Positions 1 to 58,466 of a DNA stretch of 64,000 bases are shown here, one piece after another (within the stretch, counting starts at the first letter, position 1; the number at the start of each line of letters is the position of its first letter). The notes beneath the pieces are model-generated. The model had not been told where the DNA came from. It searched no databases and was given only the letters and a program-made list of their open reading frames with translations. Source of the DNA: an uncultured Acidobacteriota bacterium (GTDB lineage Bacteria; Acidobacteriota; Thermoanaerobaculia; Gp7-AA8); contig CAWGHO010000002.1 of NCBI GenBank assembly GCA_963822445.1, forward strand, positions 2,368,001 to 2,432,000, written 5' to 3'. Position numbers and translations under genes: made by a program.

Positions 1-424
1 GTGAAGCGCGCCCCGGTCGCTCCTGCGCCTCCGAAACCGAAGCCCGTTGCGGCCGTCACCGAGGCGCCGGTCGAAGGCGAAGTATCGCGGGCCGAGATCG
101 AACAGGCTGCCGCTCCCGAGGTCGTTCCGGGCGAGGCGACGGACGGTGCATCGCCGGCCGTTCCCTTCCATCGCGATGACCTCACCCTCCCCGAGCGCAT
201 GCAGATGGCCGCGGAGATCGGCGGCAAGTGGGAGACGAAGCTCTTCGCGGCGATGGCCCAGACCGACTGCGGCGCATGCGGCTGGGATTGCGAAGGCTAC
301 GCGAACGCGCATTGCCACCGGTGAGACCGACGACATCTCCCTCTGCGTGCCGGGCGAATCCGAAACGCTCGACATGCTCAAACTTCTGATGGAGGAAGCG
401 GGCAAGCCGTACTCCGGCGTGTAG
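1..424 (+). CDS. 3' end of the gene upstream of nuoC (probably NuoB): Pro/Ala linker plus C-terminal RnfB-type 4-Cys Fe-S domain; frameshift near 310
   Basis: Frame 1 gives AMAQTDCGACGWDCEGYANA and frame 2 continues IATGETDDISLCVPG, forming CxxCxxxC-x~17-CxPG as in the PF04060 'FeS' domain. The NuoB identity is inferred only from position directly before nuoC. Confidence 0.6.
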
Positions 425-2482: not shown

Positions 2483-3623
2483 ATGAACAAGACTCTCCTG
2501 ACTTACCTCATCTGGCCGGTGGTCAAGTTCATCATCGCCTTCCTCATCGTGCAGATCATCGTCGCGGCGATGAACTGGGTGGAGCGGCGTCTTCTCGGCC
2601 TGATGCAGGCGCGCCTCGGCCCGAATCGCGTTGGTCCGATGGGGTCTGCTGCAGATCGTCGCCGATCCGATCAAGTTCCTGCTCAAGGAAGACATCATTC
2701 CGTCGAAGGCCGAGAAGGTCGGGCACTTCCTCGGACCGGTGCTGCCGCTGCTGCCGGCGTTCATGGTCTTCTGCCTGATTCCGTACGGTCCGCCGCCGAC
2801 TTTCACCGTCACGCGCGTGAACGTTGGCCTCCTGCTGATCCTGGCCATGACCTCGACCGCGGTCTACGGGATCATCCTCGGCGGCTGGGCTTCGAACAAC
2901 AAATACTCGCTGATGGGCGGTCTCCGCTCCGCGGCGCAGATGGTCTCGTACGAAGTGCCGTTCGGGCTGTCGATCGTCGGCGTGTTGATGATCTGCGGCT
3001 CGCTCGATCTCGTGCAGATCGTGCGCTACCAGGAACTGAACGCCTGGAACTTCCTCACCCAGATCGTGGCCTGCTTCATCTTCTTCGTGTCGATGAACGC
3101 GGAGAACAATCGAACGCCGTTCGATTTGCCTGAAGCGGAATCGGAGCTCGTGGCCGGCTATCACACCGAGTATTCGGCGATGAAGTTCGCGTTCTTCATG
3201 CTCGGCGAGTACTCGATGATGATCGTGAACTCCTGCCTGATCGTGACGCTGTTCTTCGGCGGCTGGACGCTGGGCATGTTCGACATGGGGCTGACCACGG
3301 CGGTGCTCGCGAAGATGGGCTTCATCGGCGGACTGCTCGGCGCGGCGATCTTCTTCACGAAGGTCATGATGTTCATGCTCGTGTACGTCTGGTTCCGCGC
3401 GACCTTCCCCCGTTTCCGCTTCGACCAGCTCATGGACCTCGGATGGAAGTACATGATTCCCCTGGCCCTGGCGAACATCTTCGTCACCGGCATCTTCATC
3501 CTCATCGGTCAGGAGCGGACCATGGGCCTGTTCGGGCTGGTGGTGATCGGAGCGACGGCCTTCTTCCTGTTCAAGCCGAAACCGAAGCGCGCGACGACCG
3601 CGAAGGTGATCCATGCAAGTTGA
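2483..3623 (+). CDS. nuoH: NADH-quinone oxidoreductase subunit H (frameshift near 2641)
   Basis: ERRLLGLMQARLGPNRVGP, GWASNNKYSLMGGLRSAAQMVSYE, NRTPFDLPEAESELVAGYHTEYS. Confidence 0.95.
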
Positions 3624-4143
3624 GTATCCGAAGAATCGCTGGTCGGAGAAGTTCCTCCTCCTGGACATCTTCGAGGGGCTGAAGACCACTCTGCGCGAGC
3701 TCTTCGTTCCGAAGGTCACCATCCGTTATCCGGAAGAGCGGATGGAGCCGGCCGATCGCTTCCGCGGCATGTTCCGTTTCTCCTTCGACCGCTGCATCGC
3801 CTGCAAGCTCTGCGCGGTGGCCTGCCCGATCGACATCATTTACATCGACGTGCACGACGAGACGATCGAAGAGGGCGGCAAGAAGAAAAAGATCAAAGTC
3901 CTCGACCGCTACGACATCGATGTGAAGCGCTGCATGTTCTGCGCGCTCTGCGAAGAAGCCTGCCCGACGAAGCCGAAGTCGATCTGGCTGACCACCAAGA
4001 CCTACGAGCTGGCCAGCTACGACCGCAACGACCTGTACTTCAACATGCAGGAGCTCGAGTACTGGGACGACAGGCCGAAGTACACCGGCCTGCCTGAGGA
4101 AGAGGGCCAGCCGAAAGTCGATGAGACCCGGCTGCTGACGTAA
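3613..4143 (+). CDS. nuoI: NADH-quinone oxidoreductase subunit I
   Basis: Two CxxCxxCxxxCP motifs; position after nuoH. Confidence 0.95.
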   Translation: MQVEYPKNRWSEKFLLLDIFEGLKTTLRELFVPKVTIRYPEERMEPADRFRGMFRFSFDRCIACKLCAVACPIDIIYIDVHDETIEEGGKKKKIKVLDRYDIDVKRCMFCALCEEACPTKPKSIWLTTKTYELASYDRNDLYFNMQELEYWDDRPKYTGLPEEEGQPKVDETRLLT

Positions 4144-4146
4144 ATC

Positions 4147-4827
4147 ATGGACGAGCTGATTGCCAACATCCCGATGCTCGTGTTCCTGGTGATCGGGACA
4201 CTCGCCGTGGCTTCGTCGATTCTGGTCGTGGCCATGCGCAATCCCGTGCACTCGGCGCTGTTTCTCCTGCTCACCTTCCTCTGCGTGGCGGTGCTGTTCG
4301 TCATCAAGTCCGCGGAGTTCGTCGCGGCCGTGCAGGTGCTCGTCTACGCCGGCGGCGTCATGGTGCTGTTCCTGTTCGTGGTCATGCTGATCAACCACCG
4401 CGAGCTTCCGGAAGAGAAGGTGCTCTCCCGTTTCTGGACGGGCGGCCTGCTGGTCGGAATCGGCGTGTTCGCGCTCTTCTTCACCATCGTCCGCACCGGC
4501 GCGTACCACGACTCGATCGCCAATCCGGAGAAGAAGCTGAACACGGTGAAGGAGTCGTACATCACCGACCATCCGACGGATCCGAACAAGTCCGTGCGCC
4601 GCACGCGCGATCGCGAGAATCACAATGCCGAGGCGGTGGCCATGTCGCTGTATCGCGACTATCTCGTGCCGTTCGAGGTCGTGTCGCTATTCCTTCTTGT
4701 GGCCATGGTCGGCGCGATCGTGATCGGCAAGCGCGAGCTGCTGGCCGAGGAAGAAGAGACCACGCCGCAGTTCATCCTGGAGCGGGCCGAGGTCGAGAAG
4801 GAAGTGAAGGACGTCGTGAATGCCTGA
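4147..4827 (+). CDS. nuoJ: NADH-quinone oxidoreductase subunit J
   Basis: NPVHSALFL, QVLVYAGGVMVLFLFVVML, PFEVVSLFLLVAMVGAI. Confidence 0.95.
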   Translation: MDELIANIPMLVFLVIGTLAVASSILVVAMRNPVHSALFLLLTFLCVAVLFVIKSAEFVAAVQVLVYAGGVMVLFLFVVMLINHRELPEEKVLSRFWTGGLLVGIGVFALFFTIVRTGAYHDSIANPEKKLNTVKESYITDHPTDPNKSVRRTRDRENHNAEAVAMSLYRDYLVPFEVVSLFLLVAMVGAIVIGKRELLAEEEETTPQFILERAEVEKEVKDVVNA

Positions 4828-5122
4828 TACCGCCGCTTACCTGATGCTTTCCGGGACGATGTTCGCGGTCGGCCTCGTCGGCGTGATCGTCCGGCGGAAC
4901 ATGATCACCGTGCTGATGTGCATCGAGCTGATGCTCAACGCCGTCAACATCAACCTCATCGCATTCTCCCATCGCCTGGCCAATCTCGAAGGGCAGGTCT
5001 TCACGGTGTTCATCATCACCATCGCGGCCGGCGAGGCGGCGGTGGGGCTGGCGATCATCATTCAGTTGTACCGGCTGCGGGCCACGGTGAACATCGACGA
5101 AGTGAGGACGCTGCATGGGTAG
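4820..5122 (+). CDS. nuoK: NADH-quinone oxidoreductase subunit K
   Basis: IELMLNAVNINL, IAAGEAAVGLAI. Confidence 0.96.
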   Translation: MPDTAAYLMLSGTMFAVGLVGVIVRRNMITVLMCIELMLNAVNINLIAFSHRLANLEGQVFTVFIITIAAGEAAVGLAIIIQLYRLRATVNIDEVRTLHG

Positions 5123-5124
5123 CC

Positions 5125-5247
5125 TTTATTCAATCCTTGGCCGCGGAGCGGCCGAGGATCTACGGTGCACCTGCGCAGCTCGTGGCCGAGGGCGTCGCGA
5201 GTGTAACCAGAGATCCTCCGGCGCGTCGCGCCGAAGGATAAAGTGAA
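5125..5247. repeat. REP-doublet (REPIN-like) palindromic element, copy 1
   Basis: Two inverted hairpin units ATCC...GGAT flanking a ~50 bp spacer; homologous in opposite orientation to 50002..50123. Confidence 0.75.
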
Positions 5248-5249
5248 CT

Positions 5250-7334
5250 ATGGCTAGCGCACTTCTACTAGTCGTCCTGCTGCCCGCGCTCGGTGCGCTG
5301 ATCAACGGCACGCGCGCGTTCGTGAATCCGCATACGCCGAAGAACAAGAGCATCACCAACCTCGTCGCGCTGGGAACCACCGGACTGTCCGCGCTGATCG
5401 CGGCCTACATCGTCTACGCCCACATCGGCCACCCGGAACAGTACTCGTACTACGAGTGGATCCCGTCGGGCATGGGCGCGGTCGGCAATCAGATCGCCAA
5501 CTTCTCCATCGACTTCGCGTTCCGCATCGACTCGCTCTCGTCGACGATGCTGTTGATCGTCACCTGGATCGGCTTCCTGATCCATGTCTACGCGACCGGC
5601 TACATGTCGCACGAGAAGGGCTACACGCGCTTCTTCACCTACCTCAACCTGTTCATGTTCATGATGCTGCTCCTCGTTCTCGGAGCGAACTACATCGTCA
5701 TGTTCGTGGGCTGGGAAGGGGTGGGCCTCTGCTCGTACCTGCTCATCGGTTTCTATTACGACAAGAACTTCGCCGCCGACGCGGGCAAGAAAGCGTTCAT
5801 CACCAATCGCATCGGCGACTTCGGCTTCATCCTCGGCATTTTCCTCATCTTCAACACCTTCGGCACTTCCGATTACGTGAAGGTGTTCACGCTGGCGAGC
5901 GAAGGCGGACATGCCTACGCGGGCGTCGCGACGGCGATCTGCCTGCTGCTGTTCATCGGCGCGTGCGGTAAGTCCGCGCAGGTGCCGCTGTATGTCTGGC
6001 TGCCCGACGCGATGGCCGGACCGACGCCGGTCTCCGCGCTGATCCATGCCGCGACGATGGTCACCGCCGGTGTGTACATGGTCGTGCGCTCGAACGTGCT
6101 GTTCCGGCTTTCTGAAACGGCTTCGCTGACCGTGGCCGTCGTCGGTGCGGTCACGGCGATCTTCGCGGCGTCGATTGGTCTCGCCCAGAACGACATCAAG
6201 AAAGTCCTCGCGTATTCGACCGTCTCGCAGCTCGGGTTCATGTTTATCGCCGCTGGCGTCGGTGCGTACAGCGCGGCGATCTTCCATGTCATGACCCACG
6301 CCTTCTTCAAGGCCTGCCTCTTCCTCGGCGCCGGCTCGGTCATTCACGGCTGCGGCGGCGAGCAGGACATGCGCAAGATGGGCGGCTTGCGGAAGTACAT
6401 GCCCCACACGCATCGCACGATGGCCATCGCCACGTATGCGATCGCCGGTCTGCCGTTCGCGGCGGGCTTCGTTTCGAAGGATGAGATTCTCGCGACGGCC
6501 TGGGGCAAACAGCCGGCCATCTGGGTCGTCGGTGCGATCGCGGCGGCGTTCACCGCCTTCTACATGTTCCGCCTCTACTTCATGACTTTCTGGGGTGAGT
6601 ACCGCGGCGGCCACGCGCCCGAGCATGGCCACGGCCACGACGCGCACGACGACCACGGTGGGCATCACGCGCACGATCCGCATGAATCGCCGGCGTCGAT
6701 GACCGGAGTGTTGTGGGTGCTGGCGATCCTCTCGATCATCGGCGGCTTCATTGGCTGGCCTGCGGCTCTCGGCGGATCGCATCCGACACCGTTCCAGAAC
6801 TGGCTTTCGCCGGTCCTGCCGCCGGTCGGCGATCACGCCTATCACTTCCATCACGAGCCCCGCCTCTGGCTGGAGTGGCTGCTGATGGGCATCTCCGTCG
6901 GCCTGGCACTCATCAGCGTTTTCCTCGCGTATCGGTTGTACGTGAAGCGGCCGCCGGTGCCGGACGTCCTCGAGCGCCGTCTCGGATTCGTCCACCGCGT
7001 GCTCGAGAACAAGTACTGGGTCGACGAGCTGTACAACGCGACGGCGATCCGCGCGACGATGCTGCTATCGACGGCGCTCTGGTGGTTCGACCGCTGGATC
7101 GTCGACGGCATCGTCAATTCCATCCGTCATCTGACCGTGTTCGGGTTCGGCCACGGCTCGAACATCTTCGACAAGTACGTCGTCGACGGCGCGGTGAACG
7201 GCGTGGGCTGGAGCGCGAAGAGCGGCTCCATGATGTTCCGGCGCGCACAGAGCGGTTTCGTGCAGAACTACGCGCTGATCATGGGCGGCGGCATCGTGTT
7301 GATTGCATTGGTTTATCTGTTCATGAAGCCGTGA
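5250..7334 (+). CDS. nuoL: NADH-quinone oxidoreductase subunit L
   Basis: GWEGVGLCSYLLIGF, KSAQVPLYVWLPDAMAGPTPVSALIHAATMV. Confidence 0.97.
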   Translation: MASALLLVVLLPALGALINGTRAFVNPHTPKNKSITNLVALGTTGLSALIAAYIVYAHIGHPEQYSYYEWIPSGMGAVGNQIANFSIDFAFRIDSLSSTMLLIVTWIGFLIHVYATGYMSHEKGYTRFFTYLNLFMFMMLLLVLGANYIVMFVGWEGVGLCSYLLIGFYYDKNFAADAGKKAFITNRIGDFGFILGIFLIFNTFGTSDYVKVFTLASEGGHAYAGVATAICLLLFIGACGKSAQVPLYVWLPDAMAGPTPVSALIHAATMVTAGVYMVVRSNVLFRLSETASLTVAVVGAVTAIFAASIGLAQNDIKKVLAYSTVSQLGFMFIAAGVGAYSAAIFHVMTHAFFKACLFLGAGSVIHGCGGEQDMRKMGGLRKYMPHTHRTMAIATYAIAGLPFAAGFVSKDEILATAWGKQPAIWVVGAIAAAFTAFYMFRLYFMTFWGEYRGGHAPEHGHGHDAHDDHGGHHAHDPHESPASMTGVLWVLAILSIIGGFIGWPAALGGSHPTPFQNWLSPVLPPVGDHAYHFHHEPRLWLEWLLMGISVGLALISVFLAYRLYVKRPPVPDVLERRLGFVHRVLENKYWVDELYNATAIRATMLLSTALWWFDRWIVDGIVNSIRHLTVFGFGHGSNIFDKYVVDGAVNGVGWSAKSGSMMFRRAQSGFVQNYALIMGGGIVLIALVYLFMKP

Positions 7335-7349
7335 GCTGACGGGAGAGCA

Positions 7350-8960
7350 ATGGGCATTCTCAACATCATCACGTACATCCCCCTCGCGGGCGCGCTGTTC
7401 ATCCTGTTCGCGTTGAACCGCGGCAATGCGCGCGCGATCCGGATCGTGGCCACGGCCACGGTCGTGATCGACTTCCTGGTCTCGCTCTACCTCTGGCCGA
7501 ACTTCGACCGCGCCGCGTCGGGCAACGGGATCTGGCAGTTCCAGGAAAAGTACGAGTGGATTCCTTCCCTCGGCGTCAGCTACCACTTCGGCATCGACGG
7601 CATCGCTCTGCTGCTCGTCCTGATGACGACCTTCTTCGGCATCATCGCCGTGGTCTCGTCGTACAGCGCCATCCAGCATCGCGAGAAGGAGTACTACACG
7701 CTGCTGCTCATGCTGCAGACGGGCATGATCGGCACCTTCTGCGCGCTCGACTTCTTCCTCTTCTACGTCTTCTGGGAAATCATGCTCGTGCCGATGTACT
7801 TCATCATCGGCATCTGGGGCGGCGCGCGGAAGCTCTACGCGGCGATCAAGTTCTTCCTGTACACGCTGGCCGGCTCCGTGCTGATGCTGCTGGCCATCCT
7901 GGCGCTGTTCTTCTTCAACGACGGCGGCATCGAGTTCCTGAACATTCGAGGGTTGGGCAACGCGCCGACGTTCAGCGTGCTCCAGTTCCACAACATCGGC
8001 CATCTCATCCCGCCGACGCTGCAGTTCTGGATCTTCCTCGGCTTCTTCTTCGGCTTCGCCATCAAAGTGCCGATGTTCCCGTTCCACACCTGGCTGCCCG
8101 ACGCTCACGTCGAGGCGCCTACGGCCGGCTCGATCATCCTGGCGGCCGTGCTCCTGAAAATGGGCACGTATGGTTTCGTGCGGTTCGCACTGCCGATCCT
8201 GCCTGATGCGACGAAAGAGCTGCTCGTGCCGATCGTCGTGCTCTCACTGATCGGCATCATCTACGGCGCGCTCGTGTCCCTCGTGCAGAAGGACATGAAG
8301 AAGCTCGTCGCGTACTCGTCCGTTTCGCACCTCGGCTTCGTCATGCTGGGGATGTTCGCGCTCAACCCGATGGGCCTCAAGGGCTCAGTGCTGCAGATGA
8401 TCAACCACGGCATCTCCACCGGCGCGCTCTTCCTTCTGGTCGGCATCATCTACGAGCGCCGCCATACCCGGATGATCGCGGACTACGGCGGACTGGCCAA
8501 GCAGATGCCGATGTACGCGGCGCTGTTCCTGATCGCCGCGCTCTCGTCGATGGGATTGCCCGCGCTCAACGGCTTCATCGGTGAGTTCACGATCCTCCTC
8601 GGTGCCGCGAACTCCACGGCTTTCGGAACGATCGCGTACGCCGTCATCGCTGCCGTCGGCATCGTCCTCGGCGCGGCATACCTGCTCTGGCTCTACCAGC
8701 GCGTCTTCTGGGGACCGCTCGACAATCCCGCCAATGCCGCCGTGCCCGACGTCAATCGCCGGGAGTTGCTGCTGATGCTTTCGCTGGTCGGCCTGATGGT
8801 GTGGATCGGCGTGTATCCGAAGCCGCTCTTCGACGTGATCGAAGAGCCGGTGAACTACATCGTGCGCAAGGTCGATCCGACGTACTTCGACAGACAGCCG
8901 CTGACGTATCCGGATGCGCCGGCCGCTCCGGCTGCGCATCACGAGGTCGCGGTGAAATGA
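7350..8960 (+). CDS. nuoM: NADH-quinone oxidoreductase subunit M
   Basis: KVPMFPFHTWLPDAHVEAPT, KKLVAYSSVSHLG. Confidence 0.97.
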   Translation: MGILNIITYIPLAGALFILFALNRGNARAIRIVATATVVIDFLVSLYLWPNFDRAASGNGIWQFQEKYEWIPSLGVSYHFGIDGIALLLVLMTTFFGIIAVVSSYSAIQHREKEYYTLLLMLQTGMIGTFCALDFFLFYVFWEIMLVPMYFIIGIWGGARKLYAAIKFFLYTLAGSVLMLLAILALFFFNDGGIEFLNIRGLGNAPTFSVLQFHNIGHLIPPTLQFWIFLGFFFGFAIKVPMFPFHTWLPDAHVEAPTAGSIILAAVLLKMGTYGFVRFALPILPDATKELLVPIVVLSLIGIIYGALVSLVQKDMKKLVAYSSVSHLGFVMLGMFALNPMGLKGSVLQMINHGISTGALFLLVGIIYERRHTRMIADYGGLAKQMPMYAALFLIAALSSMGLPALNGFIGEFTILLGAANSTAFGTIAYAVIAAVGIVLGAAYLLWLYQRVFWGPLDNPANAAVPDVNRRELLLMLSLVGLMVWIGVYPKPLFDVIEEPVNYIVRKVDPTYFDRQPLTYPDAPAAPAAHHEVAVK

Positions 8961-10432
8961 CCTGGGCCGATACCATCTACCTCCTGCCGGAGATCATCAT
9001 CGCCATCGGCGCGTGCGCGCTGCTGATTGCGCCGGTGACCGGTTTCCGCAGCGAGGGCGGGGGCGCGAAGTGGTCGATGCTGGTGCTGCTGGCGATTACG
9101 GCAGGATCGGTGATCGCCTGTTCGGCCGCCGTGACGGACATCGACCAGACCCGCGGGTTCGCGGCGATGTTCGCGCTCGATTCCTTCTCGATCTTCTTCA
9201 AGCTGCTGTTCATCGTCACCATCGCCTGCATCGTGCTGCTCTCCGATGACTTCTTCAAAGGCACGCGGTACTCGCCCTGGGAGTACTACTCGCTGCTCGC
9301 CTTCGCGCTGTGCGGCATGCTCTTCATGGCTTCGGGCATCCACCTGGCGACGATCTACGTAGGCCTGGAGCTGATGTCGCTGTCGAGCTACATCCTGGCC
9401 GGGTACTTCAAGAACGAGCAGAAGAGCACCGAGGCGGCGATGAAGTATTTCGTGCTCGGGGCGGTGAGCTCGGCGATCTTGTTGTACGGAATCTCGCTGA
9501 TTTACGGAGTCACGGGCACGCTCAACCTCGTCGAGGTCACGCGGAGCATGTCCACGCTCGTGTCGAACGACGCGCTGATGTTCGGGATCATGATGCTGGC
9601 CGCGGGACTGTGCTTCAAGATCGGCGCGGCACCGTTCCACGTCTGGGTTCCCGATGTTTACGAAGGCTCACCGACGCCGATCACGGCGTTTCTTTCGACC
9701 GCTTCAAAGGCCGCGGCCTTCGCGATCTTCGCGCGGATCTTCTACACCGGCCTGCATCACTTTCGGCTCGACTGGCAGTACGTGCTGGCGACCATCGCCG
9801 CGCTGTCGATGATCATCGGCAACCTCGCCGCCATTACCCAGGACAACATCAAGCGGATGTTGGCTTACTCGTCGATCGGACATGCCGGCTACGTGCTCCT
9901 GGGCATCCTGGCCGTCACGGAGATGGGGTTGTACGGCGTGCTGGTGTACTCGGTGGTCTACGTCTTCGCCACGCTGGGCATCTGGGCGACGGTGATGATG
10001 ATGTCCAAGCCGGAGTACGCCGGCGAGTCGGTGAACGACTTCGAAGGACTGCACCGTCGTGCGCCGTGGGCCGCGTTCGGGATGATCGTGTTTCTGCTTT
10101 CGCTCGGCGGCATTCCGCCGACGGCCGGGTTCATCGGCAAGTACTTCCTGTTCTACGCGGCCGTGCAGTCGGGCTTCGGATGGCTGGCCATCATCGCCGT
10201 GCTGATGTCGGCGGTTTCGATGTTCTTCTACTTCCGCATCGTCATGGCCATGTACCTGCGCGACGGCAGCGGCCAGGCGGAGATCGTGAACAATCGCCCG
10301 CTGCAGCTCGTCGCGGCGATCTCGCTGGTGATCACGCTGGCGTTCGGGATTGCGCCGCGGTATCTGATCGATCAGGTCACCGTGTCGGGGCGGGGAGTGG
10401 CGAAACGCGCGGCCCTGCTGCATGGACGATAA
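8957..10432 (+). CDS. nuoN: NADH-quinone oxidoreductase subunit N
   Basis: EAAMKYFVLGA, FKIGAAPFHVWVPDVYEGSP, KRMLAYSSIGHAG; ATGA overlap with nuoM. Confidence 0.96.
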   Translation: MTWADTIYLLPEIIIAIGACALLIAPVTGFRSEGGGAKWSMLVLLAITAGSVIACSAAVTDIDQTRGFAAMFALDSFSIFFKLLFIVTIACIVLLSDDFFKGTRYSPWEYYSLLAFALCGMLFMASGIHLATIYVGLELMSLSSYILAGYFKNEQKSTEAAMKYFVLGAVSSAILLYGISLIYGVTGTLNLVEVTRSMSTLVSNDALMFGIMMLAAGLCFKIGAAPFHVWVPDVYEGSPTPITAFLSTASKAAAFAIFARIFYTGLHHFRLDWQYVLATIAALSMIIGNLAAITQDNIKRMLAYSSIGHAGYVLLGILAVTEMGLYGVLVYSVVYVFATLGIWATVMMMSKPEYAGESVNDFEGLHRRAPWAAFGMIVFLLSLGGIPPTAGFIGKYFLFYAAVQSGFGWLAIIAVLMSAVSMFFYFRIVMAMYLRDGSGQAEIVNNRPLQLVAAISLVITLAFGIAPRYLIDQVTVSGRGVAKRAALLHGR

Positions 10433-10634
10433 GCAACGACGGAACGCCAAGCAGTTACTCGAGGCCTCGTCCCTCGGCTTCATGTTCCCGATCGCGATCG
10501 GCCTCGGATTCGGGTGGGGCTACTGGATGGACAAGGTCTTCGGGACCCGTCCGTGGCTCACCGTCATCTTCACGATCTTCGGGCTCATAGCCGCGTTCGT
10601 GAACCTCTTCCGCATCGGCATGCGCGATGGCTGA
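10422..10634 (+). CDS. AtpZ/AtpI-family small membrane protein
   Basis: Two TM helices with GxGYWMDKxFGTxPW motif; position upstream of atpB. Confidence 0.85.
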   Translation: MDDKQRRNAKQLLEASSLGFMFPIAIGLGFGWGYWMDKVFGTRPWLTVIFTIFGLIAAFVNLFRIGMRDG

Positions 10635-11010
10635 TGAGACGGCTCAGGTCCTGCGGCGCATCCGCTGGCTGGCCGTTGCGGCGTATCTCGTTTTCGCTGT
10701 TTTTTGCTCGATTTACGGGGGTTTTCGGGCTTTTCTCGGGTTGACTTGCAGTGCTGCCGTCACTATGATCAGCTTCCTTTGGCTGGAGGAGGTGGCGACA
10801 ATTCTCCTGCAGCCGGAGGCGGCACACCAGCACGCTCGGAGGCTGACGTTGCGCTCCCTGGCGCGCTTCGCTCTCCTGGGTGTGGCGCTCACGGTCACGA
10901 TCATCATTGCTCGTTTCAATGCAGTCAGTGTGTTGCTGGGATTCTCAGTGATCGTCGCGGGAATCTGCGGCGAAGCTCTGTATTCGCTGTACCGCAGTTT
11001 TGCGAAGTGA
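10627..11010 (+). CDS. atpI: ATP synthase subunit I-like protein
   Basis: Four-TM hydrophobic protein directly upstream of atpB. Confidence 0.7.
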   Translation: MADETAQVLRRIRWLAVAAYLVFAVFCSIYGGFRAFLGLTCSAAVTMISFLWLEEVATILLQPEAAHQHARRLTLRSLARFALLGVALTVTIIIARFNAVSVLLGFSVIVAGICGEALYSLYRSFAK

Positions 11011-11038
11011 GAAGTAGCGAGAGGTAGTCCGGAACCCG

Positions 11039-11752
11039 ATGGCACAGGAACACGAACACTCAATTCTCTACGAGCCGTTCAATCACACGGTGAGCAAGGT
11101 CGTCGGCCGTGAAGTGCACGTGCCCGATCACGTGATCATGGCCCTGCTGGTGCTGCTCATCAGCTGCATCGTCTTTCCGTTGATGCGGCGGAAGATCAGC
11201 CGCGACAATCCCAGCGGCTTCCAGCACGTGCTCGAGATGGTGGTCGACGGACTGAAAGGCCTGCTCGAAGACGTCGTCGGCCACGGCGCGTCGAAGAAAT
11301 ACATCTACATCATCGGCGCCTTCGCGTCGTTCATCTTCATTTCGAACATCTTCGGGCTGTTCTTTTTCCTGCAGCCGCCGACCGGCAATCCCAACACGAC
11401 CTTTGCTCTCGGACTGACGGCGTTCCTGTACTACAACTTCGTCGGCATCAGGGAAGTGGGACTGCTGCATTACCTCAAGCATTTCGCCGGCCCGATGCCG
11501 CTGCTGGCGCCGCTGTTCATCCCCATCGAGATCATCGGCCACACGGCCCGCATCCTCTCGCTGGGCATGCGCTTGTTCGGAAACATCTTCGGTGAGCACA
11601 CCGCCACCGGGATCTTCATGGGCATGCTTCCGTTCGTCCTGCCCTGGCCGATGATGGGGCTGGGCATCTTCGGCGCGTTCCTGCAGACCTTCGTCTTCTG
11701 CATGATGACCATGGTCTACATCGGTGGCGCGGTCACGGCGGAAGAGCACTGA
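11039..11752 (+). CDS. atpB: F0F1 ATP synthase subunit a
   Basis: RILSLGMRLFGNIFGEH, LQTFVFCMMTMVYI. Confidence 0.96.
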   Translation: MAQEHEHSILYEPFNHTVSKVVGREVHVPDHVIMALLVLLISCIVFPLMRRKISRDNPSGFQHVLEMVVDGLKGLLEDVVGHGASKKYIYIIGAFASFIFISNIFGLFFFLQPPTGNPNTTFALGLTAFLYYNFVGIREVGLLHYLKHFAGPMPLLAPLFIPIEIIGHTARILSLGMRLFGNIFGEHTATGIFMGMLPFVLPWPMMGLGIFGAFLQTFVFCMMTMVYIGGAVTAEEH

Positions 11753-11799
11753 TCAAGAGTTCAAAACATTCGCGACTATCGCGAAAGGAGGAGAATCGA

Positions 11800-12117
11800 G
11801 TGAACAAGAAACACATTCTGCTAGTCGTCATCCTGCTGCTGACGGCCTTCTCGGCGTTCGCACAGACTGACGCGGCTGCTGCGCCGGTCCGGACCGGAGT
11901 GCGTTGGGGTGCGATCGCTGCCGCGTTCGTTCTCGGCATCGCTGCTGCTGCCGGCGCGATGGGCCAGTCTCGCGCCATCGTCGCTGCCTGCGAAGGCATC
12001 GCCCGCAATCCGGGCGCGGCCGGTCCGATCCGTCTGGCGATGATCATCGGCCTCGCGCTGATCGAGTCGCTGGTCATCTACGCGCTGCTGATCGCGTACT
12101 TCGTCCACGAGTTCTAG
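11800..12117 (+). CDS. atpE: F0F1 ATP synthase subunit c with signal-peptide-like N-terminal extension
   Basis: IARNP loop and ALIESLVIY; strong SD (AGGAGG) before GTG. Confidence 0.95.
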   Translation: MNKKHILLVVILLLTAFSAFAQTDAAAAPVRTGVRWGAIAAAFVLGIAAAAGAMGQSRAIVAACEGIARNPGAAGPIRLAMIIGLALIESLVIYALLIAYFVHEF

Positions 12118-50800: not shown

Positions 50801-52180
50801 TCATCTCCTTCGTGCCACGTTTCCCAGGCCGTCGTAGGCCGCGTATTTGTACGCCTCGCTGAGCGTCGGAAAGTTGAATACGCAGTCGATGAATGCATTC
50901 AGCGTTCCGCCGAACTGCATGACCATCATCCCGACGTGCAGAAGCTCCGAGGCATTCTCTCCGACGATGTGCACGCCGAGCAACTTCAGCGTCTCGCGCT
51001 CGAAGATGATCTTGATGAGTCCCTTCGTGTCGCCGATGATCTGCCCGCGCGCATTGTTGCGGTACAGCGCTCGCCCCACCTCGTAATCGACCTGCTGTTC
51101 CTTGCACTGCTCCTCAGTCAACCCGACCGTCGAAACCTCGGGGATCGTGTAAATCCCGTACGGCAGGATCGAGGCGACGCGCGTTTTGTACTTGAGATCG
51201 AAGGCGTGAACCATGGCCACGCGGGCCTGTTCCATCGACGTGGAAGCGAGTGACGGAAAGCCGATGACGTCGCCGGCTGCGTAGATGTTCGGGACGTTGG
51301 TCTGATAGCTCTCGTTGACCGTGAGCAAGCCGCGCTCGCCGGCTTTTACTCCCGCTGCTTCGAGGTTGAGCGTCCCGACGTTGCTCGTCCGTCCGGCAGC
51401 GTACAGAACCTTCTCCGCGACGACGGTCGAACCGCTTTTCAGAATCAGCGAGACCTGGCCGCCACTCTTAACCACGGAGTCGACTTCGCAGCCGAGGTGG
51501 GCGATGACGCCGACGCGGCTCTCCATTTCCCGAAGCAGCAGATTGCCGATCTCCCGATCGATGAAGGGCAGCAGGTAAGGGCGGTTGTTGATGAGATGCA
51601 CTTCCACGCCGAGGGCGGCGAAGATCGAGGCGTATTCGCAGCCGATGACACCTGCGCCGACGACGGCCAGCGATTGGGGGATGCGGTCGAGGGCGAGGAT
51701 GGTGTCGCTGTCGAGAATGTGCTCGTCGTCGAAGGGAACATTCGGCGGGCGGAAGGGGGAGGAGCCGGTGGCGATGAGGATGATCTCGCCGCGGAGAACC
51801 TGATCCCCCACTTCGACTTCATGCGCGGAACGAAATTTCGCCTCGCCGCGGAAACGCTCGACGTTGTGCCGCTTGAGGTTCTCGTCGATGCGATTCCATT
51901 CGCGCTCGACGACGATCTGCTTGCGATGCATGAAGTCGGCGACGGTGATGTTGCGCCGGAGCTGCACGTCGACCGCGGCCAAAAACCCGCGCTGGCGCAT
52001 GCCCGAAAGGTGCAGCGCCGACTCGCGGAGGGTCTTCGACGGAACAGTGCCCGTGTTGACGCAAGCGCCGCCAAGGACCGGCTCCCGCTCGATCAACGCA
52101 ACGCGCTTCCCGAACCACGCCGCCTGCGCCGCGCCCTTCTCACCGGCCGGTCCGGAGCCGATGACGATGAGGTCGAACAT
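50801..52180 (-). CDS. sthA: Soluble pyridine nucleotide transhydrogenase
   Basis: GSGPAG, GGACVNTGTVPSKTLRE (single Cys), YTIPE, FNFPTLSEAYKYAA. Confidence 0.92.
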   Translation of the reverse strand: MFDLIVIGSGPAGEKGAAQAAWFGKRVALIEREPVLGGACVNTGTVPSKTLRESALHLSGMRQRGFLAAVDVQLRRNITVADFMHRKQIVVEREWNRIDENLKRHNVERFRGEAKFRSAHEVEVGDQVLRGEIILIATGSSPFRPPNVPFDDEHILDSDTILALDRIPQSLAVVGAGVIGCEYASIFAALGVEVHLINNRPYLLPFIDREIGNLLLREMESRVGVIAHLGCEVDSVVKSGGQVSLILKSGSTVVAEKVLYAAGRTSNVGTLNLEAAGVKAGERGLLTVNESYQTNVPNIYAAGDVIGFPSLASTSMEQARVAMVHAFDLKYKTRVASILPYGIYTIPEVSTVGLTEEQCKEQQVDYEVGRALYRNNARGQIIGDTKGLIKIIFERETLKLLGVHIVGENASELLHVGMMVMQFGGTLNAFIDCVFNFPTLSEAYKYAAYDGLGNVARRR

Positions 52181-52263
52181 GTTGGGTTACTAGGTTACGG
52201 GGTTGCGGGGTTACGAGGTGGATGAAAAACCCCGTAACCCCGAGACCTCGTAACCCCGCAACT
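52181..52263. repeat. Octamer tandem-repeat hairpin, (GGTTACGG-like)n ... (CGTAACCC-like)n
   Basis: Inverted tandem octamers fill the apt-sthA gap. Confidence 0.8.
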
Positions 52264-56531: not shown

Positions 56532-56723
56532 CGCCGACCTCCGTTTTCCCCGCGCCTTTTTTGGTGAACCCTTTGTGTTGCGCAAGCGCACTGCGAACCG
56601 CGTGCCGTTGTTGCGGCGGATGCCCGTTTTACCTAGAATGGCCGCCCGATTTGGGGTTGCTTCTTCCCGCCAGGCAACCCAGCAACCCAGCTACCTAGCA
56701 ACCAGGGATTTCTGGAGGTTCGA

Positions 56724-57503
56724 TTGAGCTCCGTCGTTTGCATCAGCCACGTTCCCGATACCGAGTCGCGCATCAAAGTCGCGGCGGACGGTCGCAAGAT
56801 CGACGAGACCGGTCTGAAGTTCATCGTCTCGCCATATGACGAGTTCGCGCTCGAAGAAGCCATCCGCCTGAAGGAAAAGTCGGGCGGCGACGTCACGGTC
56901 ATCACCTTCGGTCCCGATCGCGCGCAGCAGGGCCTGCGCGAGGCGCTGGCCCGCGGCGCCACGAAAGCCCTGCACGTGAAAGGCGAGTCGAGCGACGCGG
57001 ACTCCCTCGGCGTCGCCAAGGTCCTCGCCGCGGCCATCAAGACCGTCGAGCACGATCTCGTGTTCCTCGGCAAGCAGGGCGTCGGCACGGACAACGCCCT
57101 GGTCGGCCCGATGCTCGCGGAGCTGCTCGGCTATCCGCAGGTCAACGTCATCACGCATCTCGAGATCGGCGAAGGCAAGCTGACCGCGCATCGCGAGATC
57201 GAGGGCGCGGAAGAAGTAATCGAGGCGCCGACGCCGGCGGTCGTGACCGCGCAGAAGGGCCTCAACGAGCCGCGTTACGCGTCGCTCAAAGGGATCATGG
57301 CCGCGAAGAAGATCGCCATCGACACGAAGACAGTCGCCGACCTCGGCCTCGACGAAGCCGATGTCTTCAACCAGCGCGTGAGCGTCGTGAAGCTCGAGAT
57401 GCCCGCCGAGAAGAGCGGCGGCCGGAAGATCGACGGCGCCGACGCGGCCGCGGCGGCGAAAGAGATCGTGAAGTACATCAAAGAAGAAGCGAAGGCGCTG
57501 TAG
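56724..57503 (+). CDS. etfB: Electron transfer flavoprotein beta subunit
   Basis: VPDT, YDEFALEEA, GKQ, NEPRYASLKGIM. Confidence 0.93.
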   Translation: MSSVVCISHVPDTESRIKVAADGRKIDETGLKFIVSPYDEFALEEAIRLKEKSGGDVTVITFGPDRAQQGLREALARGATKALHVKGESSDADSLGVAKVLAAAIKTVEHDLVFLGKQGVGTDNALVGPMLAELLGYPQVNVITHLEIGEGKLTAHREIEGAEEVIEAPTPAVVTAQKGLNEPRYASLKGIMAAKKIAIDTKTVADLGLDEADVFNQRVSVVKLEMPAEKSGGRKIDGADAAAAAKEIVKYIKEEAKAL

Positions 57504-57512
57504 GAGACCGAC

Positions 57513-58466
57513 ATGCCTGGTGTTCTCGTTTTCACCGAATCAAAAGAAGGCAGGCTGAAGAAAGCCTCGCGTGAAGCACTGTCGATCGGCCGCAAACTGG
57601 CCGAGGCCGCAGGCGGAGATCTGATCGCTTTCGCCAGCGACACCGGTGCGGCCGAGGAAGCGGGCAAGTACGGCGCGAAGAAGGTCTACGTCGGCGGCTC
57701 GGCGCAATACACGACCGAGGCGTTCACCGCGGATCTCGTGCAGGTCGCGAAGGACGTGCAGCCCGCGATTCTGTTGCTGGGCGGCACTTCGAACGGACGC
57801 GATCTCGCGCCGCGCGTCGCCGCACGGCTGAACGTCGGCGTGGCCTCGGATGTCGATCGCCTCGAGTGGACCGACGGCAAGTTGCGCGCGCGGCGCCCCG
57901 TGTACTCCGGCAAGGTCTTCGCGACCGTCGACGTGACAGGGACTCCCGCCATCGCCACGACGCGTCCCAACGCGTTTCCTGCAGAAGAAGCGGGCGGCGG
58001 TGCGGCGGAGGTCGTTAACGTGACGTCGTCCGCTGCCGATCGCGTGAAGGTCGTGGAGACAAAGACTCCGGAAGCCGGCGAGCTGTCGATCGCCGAAGCG
58101 GACATCATCGTCAGCGGCGGGCGCGGTCTGAAGGAAGCGACGAACTTCTCGGTGATTCGGGATCTCGCGCATGCCATCGGCGGCGCGGTCGGCGCATCAC
58201 GCGCGACGGTGGACGCGGGATGGATCGATCACCAGCACCAGGTCGGCCAGACCGGCCGCGTGGTCAGCCCGAACGTCTACATCGCCGCGGGCGTGTCAGG
58301 CGCGATTCAGCACCTGGCGGGCATGTCGTCGTCGAAGCACATCATCGCCATCAACAAGGATCCCGAGGCGCCGATCTTCCGCATCGCCGACCTGGGCGTG
58401 GTTGGAGATCTCTTCCAGATCCTGCCGGCGCTGACCGAGGAAGTGAAGAAAGCGAAAGCGCACTAA
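57513..58466 (+). CDS. etfA: Electron transfer flavoprotein alpha subunit
   Basis: IVSGGRG, GASRA, QVGQTG, GVSGAIQHLAGM, AINKD. Confidence 0.96.
   Translation: MPGVLVFTESKEGRLKKASREALSIGRKLAEAAGGDLIAFASDTGAAEEAGKYGAKKVYVGGSAQYTTEAFTADLVQVAKDVQPAILLLGGTSNGRDLAPRVAARLNVGVASDVDRLEWTDGKLRARRPVYSGKVFATVDVTGTPAIATTRPNAFPAEEAGGGAAEVVNVTSSAADRVKVVETKTPEAGELSIAEADIIVSGGRGLKEATNFSVIRDLAHAIGGAVGASRATVDAGWIDHQHQVGQTGRVVSPNVYIAAGVSGAIQHLAGMSSSKHIIAINKDPEAPIFRIADLGVVGDLFQILPALTEEVKKAKAH

Follow-up and report, generated by a model that had tools for sequence, protein, structure and literature searches.

The 64,000-nucleotide stretch of Acidobacteriota DNA analysed here (G000:C2:2368001-2432000, forward strand; hereafter "the window", numbered from its first nucleotide) opens inside nuoB, at the head of an operon for an 11-subunit complex I without nuoE, nuoF or nuoG. 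Behind its ordinary core and a linker of ~90 residues, the encoded NuoB carries a C-terminal iron-sulfur (Fe-S) domain of the PF04060 family, which belongs to the same type as the B8 domain of RnfB and the cluster domain of the corrinoid Fe-S protein (CoFeSP). The domain is presumed to bind one [4Fe-4S] cluster, and it probably acts as a tethered ferredoxin surrogate for the NuoI-NuoB cluster chain. This reading is favored because those of its relatives with a known or inferable role (RnfB B8 and the CysJ-type FeS domain) are mobile one-electron carriers, because the module hops among the three subunits (NuoB, NuoC and NuoI) that form the top of the Q-module, and because it combines ferredoxin-like acidity with arrays on linkers of the swinging-arm type.

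The open reading frame (ORF) closing at window position 424 is the 3′ end of nuoB, which starts at window position -596, immediately after nuoA. From gene order, the initial annotation had supposed that the gene before nuoC was nuoB, and reading upstream of the window bore this out: the core 5′ of the window matches PF01058 (Pfam, 100.8 bits versus a cut-off of 27) and has the ACCAIEM-type signature among its motifs (GLACCAIEMM, which includes CCAIEM, GSCATCGG and PGCPP). Within the window, frame 1 (1-324) encodes a Pro/Ala/Glu-rich stretch followed by ...AMAQTDCGACGWDCEGYANA, HCHR and a stop (the same tail can be written as ...KLFAAMAQTDCGACGWDCEGYANA followed by four residues and TGA), and frame 2 carries nuoB onward as IATGETDDISLCVPGESETLDMLKLLMEEAGKPYSGV to a stop at 422-424. 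When the break is bridged by stepping one base, NuoB has 339 residues; the window holds the following parts of its gene:

1-159, + strand: distal linker of nuoB, Pro/Ala/Glu-rich, about NuoB residues 200-252 (from sequence)
160-421, + strand: C-terminal PF04060-type Fe-S domain of NuoB, 87 residues on read-through (PF04060, 29.4 bits)
268-346, + strand: the four putative cluster-ligand cysteine codons, at 268-270, 277-279, 289-291 and 344-346, the last one past the break (from sequence)
307-311, + strand: single added base that breaks the frame, within GCGAACGC[GC]ATTGCC, in this genome only (comparison with relatives)
311-424, + strand: frame-2 remainder of nuoB (IATGETDD...PYSGV), closed by its genuine stop codon, TAG, at 422-424 (from sequence)

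The assignment of the cysteine pattern to PF04060 'FeS', first made from the sequence alone, was confirmed: the last 87 residues of NuoB (with the one-base step at 307-311) match the profile with 29.4 bits (E = 6.5e-7; curated cut-off, 23 bits) over positions 3-33 of 33, and the intact orthologue P0123 scores 26.8 bits. The ligand cysteines are spaced C-x2-C-x3-C-x17-C, and the motif is conserved among homologues, with C37, C40 and C44 invariant and C62 present in at least 90% of the 41 sequences aligned, and with all four invariant in alignment A3. Searched against 1.84 billion cluster representatives, the 87 residues matched 401 clusters at E ≤ 1e-3, of which 162 reached E ≤ 1e-10. Because the matches cover query residues 2-82, the conserved unit comprises ~80 residues and extends beyond the 33-residue Pfam core, with ~30 more conserved residues (a PWHD..L.L.ERM helix) N-terminal to that core. 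An AlphaFold2 model built on the 41-sequence alignment has four helices (predicted local distance difference test [pLDDT] 93.1; predicted template modeling score 0.85). In a VIA-align comparison with 48,161 chains the top match was RnfB of A. woodii (9eri_B residues 34-95; Z 4.9, one Z unit over unrelated rows; root-mean-square deviation [rmsd] 3.0 Å over 61 residues), and the sole sequence match in the PDB was RnfB of A. vinelandii (8ahx_B), a weak one at E 0.11. With Foldseek every row lay above E 1e-3; among the best, likewise weak, were two CoFeSP chains, 4c1n_G (E 1.5, rank 1) and 9fzy_F (E 2.1, rank 4). The domain is strongly acidic, with a net charge of -10 in this genome; across the NuoB-fused copies (14) the charge ranges from -9 to -12, and across the NuoC-fused ones (13) from -5 to -10. 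The linker that joins it to the NuoB core measures 83 to 101 residues (Pro+Ala, 33-50%) in 14 fused orthologues, and has three segments: a conserved one (FARAAVRDSLRP.HEGPALRAEQ...PAPISGVKR), a variable one rich in Pro and Ala, and EIQQAAAPE, which is short and again conserved.

What the first reading of the sequence had noticed as an indel is a single +1 insertion found in this genome only. The break site has one base fewer in 11 of 11 same-genus loci compared at the DNA level and in all 18 related loci of a second comparison, and the out-of-frame TGA at 322-324 is a consequence of the insertion. Further private +1 insertions lie in nuoD near 1555 (extra base lacking in 17/17 covering loci), near 1840 (10/12) and near 2310 (7/7), and in nuoH near 2640 (5/7), with another probable in nuoD near 1795. 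In all, five or six single bases are inserted privately between about 310 and about 2640, a span of 2.4 kb; the next 7.8 kb (2700-10500) show no consistent private indel in comparison with the 18 related loci. Because the nuoB insertion is private to the genome and belongs to this cluster across nuoB, nuoD and nuoH, an assembly error is by a wide margin the most likely origin of this frame break and of its kindred. If the breaks were instead real in the strain, nuoB, nuoD and nuoH would be pseudogenes in a decaying operon, which would be compatible with any reading of the Fe-S module. The clustering within 2.4 kb, with no consistent insertion in the next 7.8 kb, implies a non-uniform error rate and lends this possibility some weight, but we consider it unlikely, as every break is a +1 with zero deletions or larger lesions, the frames on both sides of the breaks are fully conserved (the fourth cysteine and the PG that follows it included), and another, long-read-style metagenome-assembled genome (MAG; locus L035) has similar multiple breaks throughout its operon. 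The final 36-37 residues of NuoB retain 86-94% protein identity to orthologues, and codon differences past the break amount to 200 synonymous and 49 nonsynonymous over 16 ungapped comparisons (2 of 18 were left out for gaps, and the pairs are not independent). A programmed frameshift was rejected, given that all relatives are in frame at that spot.

An intact, stop-free orthologue extending over residues 1-338/339 (86-91% identity) was found in 22 of 24 same-genus genomes; the two exceptions are a 790-contig genome, where the match ends at residue 198, and a 71%-complete genome with a second NuoB only. At the level of the order, 109 of 127 genomes have the domain, as do 76 of 86 high-quality genomes and 37 of 43 genera, with family counts of 107/123 (f1), 1/1 (f2) and 0/2 (f3) genomes (these tallies take in the unpublished genomes G002, G076 and G130, on which no claim stands alone). 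The initial annotation had held the domain to be foreign to ordinary NuoB, and both available comparisons agree: matching to NuoB orthologues beyond the order ends at about residue 160-213, and a second NuoB encoded in this genome contains PF01058 only. In a large protein collection, the C-terminal part of NuoB was matched by 899 of 936 candidate proteins at E ≤ 1e-3. Nearly all of the best 120 candidates listed are ~340 residues long, combine PF04060 with PF01058, come from Thermoanaerobaculia or Acidobacteriota, and bear the plain name 'NADH-quinone oxidoreductase subunit B'.

Downstream of nuoB the gene order is nuoC-D-H-I-J-K-L-M-N with no E, F or G, giving the arrangement nuoABCDHIJKLMN with nuoH directly after nuoD; ATP-synthase genes adjoin the 3′ end of the operon (window 10422-12117). 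These genes are laid out as follows:

431-1270, + strand: nuoC, with a Pro-rich N-terminus and a Pro/Ala tail of ~80 residues with an acidic end, without Fe-S domain (PF00329, 151.3 bits)
1263-2379, + strand: nuoD, broken by private +1 insertions (comparison with relatives)
2483-3623, + strand: nuoH, directly after nuoD, with one private +1 near 2640 (comparison with relatives)
3613-4143, + strand: nuoI, with all eight cluster cysteines; a Lys-rich loop (GGKKKKIK) separates its two cluster motifs (from sequence)
4147-4827, + strand: nuoJ
4820-5122, + strand: nuoK
5250-7334, + strand: nuoL
7350-8960, + strand: nuoM
about 8957-10432, + strand: nuoN
10422-10634: AtpZ/I-like ORF (Pfam, PF09527)
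between the AtpZ/I-like ORF and atpB: unassigned ORF of 127 residues
11039-11752: atpB
11800-12117: likely ATP-synthase c subunit (from position and a membrane-protein-like sequence only)

The absence of NuoEFG noted in the initial annotation thus holds for the operon but not for the genome, in which a second, canonical set is scattered over three places: nuoB-CD (fused)-I on C1:316135-319150, nuoG-H-J-K-L-M-N on C3:982800-992800 and nuoA-E-F on C3:1019601-1021824. The organism therefore does not lack the N-module (the NADH module), and the Fe-S-bearing enzyme is a second complex I beside an NADH-linked one. A second NuoB, with ~50% identity, is likewise present in most members of the genus.

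To place the domain among its relatives, 185,579 species genomes were scanned, yielding at least 598 stretches, 594 of them confirmed; the best 80 loci were annotated with reference proteins, and the locus counts that follow refer to these 80. Nuo genes were linked to the domain in 24 loci, no nuo gene lay within 10 kb in another 24, and the remaining 32 encode fusions to an FNR-type reductase (FeS-FNR). None of the 24 nuo-linked loci had a match to NuoE, NuoF or NuoG; nuoD was followed by nuoH, and the order was A-B-C-D-H-I-J-K-L-M-N wherever the contig shows it. Among the loci examined, the link of the domain to nuo genes is exclusive to operons without nuoEFG. The co-occurrence that the initial annotation had proposed to test stands in one direction and fails in the other, since in other families of the class the orthologous operon also lacks nuoEFG and yet has no domain (11/11, one of them from unpublished G030). 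These sister operons contradict the suggestion that the domain generally replaces the N-module; it is a later add-on to an enzyme that already lacked NuoEFG.

In 14 of the 24 nuo-linked loci the domain is in frame with NuoB and in 13 with NuoC; 8 loci count under both. Five loci have it on NuoC only, among them L040, in which four further copies stand upstream where the contig end cuts in, so that at least five copies are present. The others include the frame-broken L035, L094 with the domain as a separate ORF after nuoN, the contig-cut L043 and L055, and L070, a Verrucomicrobiota MAG with a NuoI-FeS fusion. The linkers on NuoC measure 45-50 residues (141 in L035). Genome G025, from another family of the same order, has a plain NuoB, and four tandem copies follow its NuoC. 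These copies are near-identical, each with a linker, and run up to the nuoD start (L017:3809-6078), with one frame change at the first copy. A reciprocal pattern was also observed, in that a NuoB or NuoC without the domain keeps a Pro/Ala tail with an acidic end (..EEDADV, ..DDEDEDAE, ..ETEEEIN); the NuoC tail occupies about 1030-1267 in the window, and the tails were compared in loci L023-L042.

A Pfam scan of the best 150 cluster representatives found one NuoB + FeS protein (plus a fragment), two NuoC + FeS, three NuoI-like Fer4 + FeS (one with two copies), 39 combining FeS with FAD_binding_1 (with or without NAD_binding_1), and one consisting of three tandem copies alone; the rest were FeS only, many of them fragments. 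In a further search NuoI-FeS fusions made up the top group, and the best 31 further hits (330-400 residues, two shorter) contained 4Fe-4S ferredoxin-type families and, in all but three, PF04060; their source names are NuoI or Verrucomicrobia proteins. The FeS-FNR loci (L069, L071-L093 and L095-L102) come from Alphaproteobacteria and Planctomycetota. Each of these 32 loci encodes a CysJ-like FAD/NAD(P)H reductase without an FMN domain, the Fe-S domain standing first, in the place that the FMN domain has in CysJ, and in 30 of them the gene lies just 3′ of a nitrite/sulfite reductase haemoprotein gene. In Acidobacteriota the domain also occurs, away from nuo genes, in stand-alone proteins (L018, L019, L020, L044-L054 and L056-L068, with L018 from the unpublished genome G030), and those that were read have ~225 residues, with a Cys-rich, zinc-ribbon-like N-terminus and the Fe-S domain at the C-terminus. 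Their genomic context was uninformative (L048 is flanked by genes for RidA, a histidine kinase and a protein of the metallo-beta-lactamase fold). A phylogeny of 54 copies of the domain (one in three FNR and stand-alone rows kept; matches of <60 residues dropped) was poorly resolved inside Acidobacteriota, but set the Acidobacteriota copies apart (99/96) from the FNR type together with the Verrucomicrobiota NuoI copy, a split that suggests at least two recruitments.

Of the known systems, the B8 domain of RnfB (9ERI chain B; 8AHX chain B) is the top, though weak, fold match and a fellow member of PF04060. The accessible part of PMC11889175 presents B8 as a single-cluster, ferredoxin-like, mobile tethered domain in a membrane redox pump, describes it as highly dynamic, proposes that it moves so that electrons are passed on, and places it just behind the RnfB membrane helix, where the fold match falls. 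In RnfB the domain comes after the transmembrane helix and before the polyferredoxin, whereas in NuoB it is C-terminal, behind a Pro/Ala linker, in complex I. The protein is not an RnfB subunit, in which a membrane helix, Fer4 domains and an rnf operon would be expected: this NuoB has no Fer4 hit, and its operon is nuo. The N-terminal [4Fe-4S] domain of the CoFeSP large subunit gave the best Foldseek rows, with weak E values (4C1N chain G and 9FZY chain F; TM score 0.49 and 0.47, rmsd 2.6 and 2.0 Å, 60 and 51 columns, respectively). The CoFeSP cluster domain is small, sits on a flexible linker and takes electrons for its host protein, although that host is a methyl-transfer protein, unlike the respiratory complex here. 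The closest sequence relatives outside complex I are the CysJ-like FeS reductases (P0155 and P0167, annotated as sulfite reductase flavoprotein type), which carry the same extended 80-residue domain. In these enzymes, however, it belongs to the donor (FeS, then FAD and NAD(P)H) rather than to the membrane enzyme, the two groups form separate clades, and NuoB has neither FAD_binding_1 nor NAD_binding_1.

As to its host, the enzyme shares the core nuoABCDHIJKLMN without an N-module with cyanobacterial NDH-1, Fpo and the 11-subunit enzymes of Campylobacter and Desulfitobacterium, for all of which, as here, an alternative low-potential donor is expected. NDH-1 takes ferredoxin via NdhS/V/O and Fpo works with FpoF; as a group, these enzymes use free ferredoxin, flavodoxin, F420 or extra docking subunits. 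To our knowledge, none of them has been described with a covalently tethered cluster domain. The lipoyl domains of the E2 component of 2-oxoacid dehydrogenases are likewise small cargo domains, sometimes in tandem, on Ala/Pro-rich linkers; the layout of the arms is similar by analogy, while cofactor, chemistry and fold are unrelated.

If the domain is a ferredoxin surrogate for its host, the 11-subunit complex I without NuoEFG, it would swing on its flexible arm of ~90 residues between a cytoplasmic redox partner and the NuoI-NuoB cluster chain, meeting that chain at its exposed end, presumably by docking on NuoI, and would carry one electron per trip. The Lys-rich loop of NuoI, which is conserved in the clade without NuoEFG with or without the Fe-S domain and is 2-3 residues longer in this order, may be the docking site for acidic carriers. 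A complex prediction with P0123 residues 255-344, the NuoI of the window and three clusters reached 0.29 against a mark of 0.32 and gave no verdict. Entry of electrons towards quinone would be more likely than exit, because the surroundings of the operon are those of ordinary respiration, the next genes being for ATP synthase. In the opposite case, proton motive force would drive reverse flow from quinol, and the domain would give low-potential electrons to cytoplasmic acceptors that otherwise need reduced ferredoxin. Such a role would fit the FNR-type fusions, in which the domain is part of the electron donor to a nitrite/sulfite reductase of the ferredoxin type (30/32 loci), and Rnf, owner of the best-matching fold, runs in both directions according to the abstract of PMC11889175; the separate canonical NADH-linked set would also free this enzyme for another task. 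Nevertheless, no operon-linked acceptor gene was found, and with the ATP-synthase genes behind the operon we regard export of electrons as a minor possibility.

Several observations weigh against the domain being a physiological electron carrier of this complex. The nuoB, nuoD and nuoH genes are all out of frame here, so that the operon would be dead in the strain if the breaks were real. The fold matches are weak throughout (Foldseek E 1.5; VIA-align Z 4.9; PDB sequence E 0.11), and the second cysteine gap is x3 in the NuoB-fused domain versus x4 in the aligned RnfB chain. In the AlphaFold2 model of full-length NuoB (mean pLDDT 59.2) the domain alone is confident and most of the linker falls below 50, which is no proof of disorder because the full-length model is poor overall. 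The packing of the domain in that model was set aside, the NuoB core being modeled too poorly. The 11 sister operons imply that the domain is unnecessary for this enzyme type. A linked partner is lacking as well: no obvious electron donor gene was found within the window, and the genome has no CysJ/FNR-like homologue, for which reason a Rosetta-stone search for a partner through such a gene was dropped. There was likewise no match to a NiFe hydrogenase large subunit in this genome; one 2-oxoacid:ferredoxin oxidoreductase-like gene lies, unlinked, 80 kb beyond the window end. It is conceivable (although very unlikely) that the domain senses oxygen or redox state, or that it is an appendage with a part in assembly or regulation by which the enzyme is tuned or protected. 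That sister families do without it would agree with such a role, as would the acidic-ended Pro/Ala tails kept by subunits without the domain, which may have a role of their own. However, the relatives of known or inferable role are electron carriers, tandem arrays of four to five copies better suit a relay or capture device, and all four cysteines are conserved, each of which speaks against a sensor or appendage.

We tentatively extend the surrogate reading to a wider proposal, which we hold with less confidence: that the tethered domains form the physiological electron port of a head-less complex I, in which one to at least five acidic domains on swinging arms of NuoB, NuoC or NuoI might take electrons straight from cytoplasmic enzymes of low potential and pass them to the clusters of NuoI, allowing proton pumping without NADH or free ferredoxin, and that this arrangement arose at least twice, in Acidobacteriota and Verrucomicrobiota. 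The electron donor of the widespread 11-subunit complex I without NuoEFG is treated as debated and an open question in the accessible part of PMC11238625, on which the present architecture bears; a likely port built into the subunits makes the donor question directly testable. For annotation, several hundred public 'NuoB' proteins carry the domain, as do fewer proteins named 'NuoC' or 'NuoI'. Repeated independent fusion to three Q-module subunits and to FNR-type reductases also offers a natural example of a swinging-arm electron carrier, which could be copied into engineered redox chains. The open-access papers searched contained no account of NuoB, NuoC or NuoI fused to an Fe-S domain, though the NuoB + FeS architecture is already visible in automatic domain tables; Spero 2015 (PMC4453560) lists, in its accessible part, only NuoCD and NuoBCD fusions. 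Bradyrhizobium Flp (PMC4724949) was considered as a parallel and left unused, its operon being a different one and the accessible part of the paper making no mention of an Fe-S domain.

Elsewhere in the window, electron-transfer flavoprotein beta and alpha genes (56637-58463) and a dihydrolipoamide-dehydrogenase-like gene (50804-52186) lie far from the nuo operon, with no evident link to it. Directly 5′ of nuoA, outside the window, a gene encodes a PF02636 (Methyltransf_28) protein (L001:5848-6987, window -2152 to -1013) of the NDUFAF7/MidA type, a complex I assembly factor family. In G025 the ORF in the matching position (L017:1387-2565) is alike by eye to this PF02636 gene.

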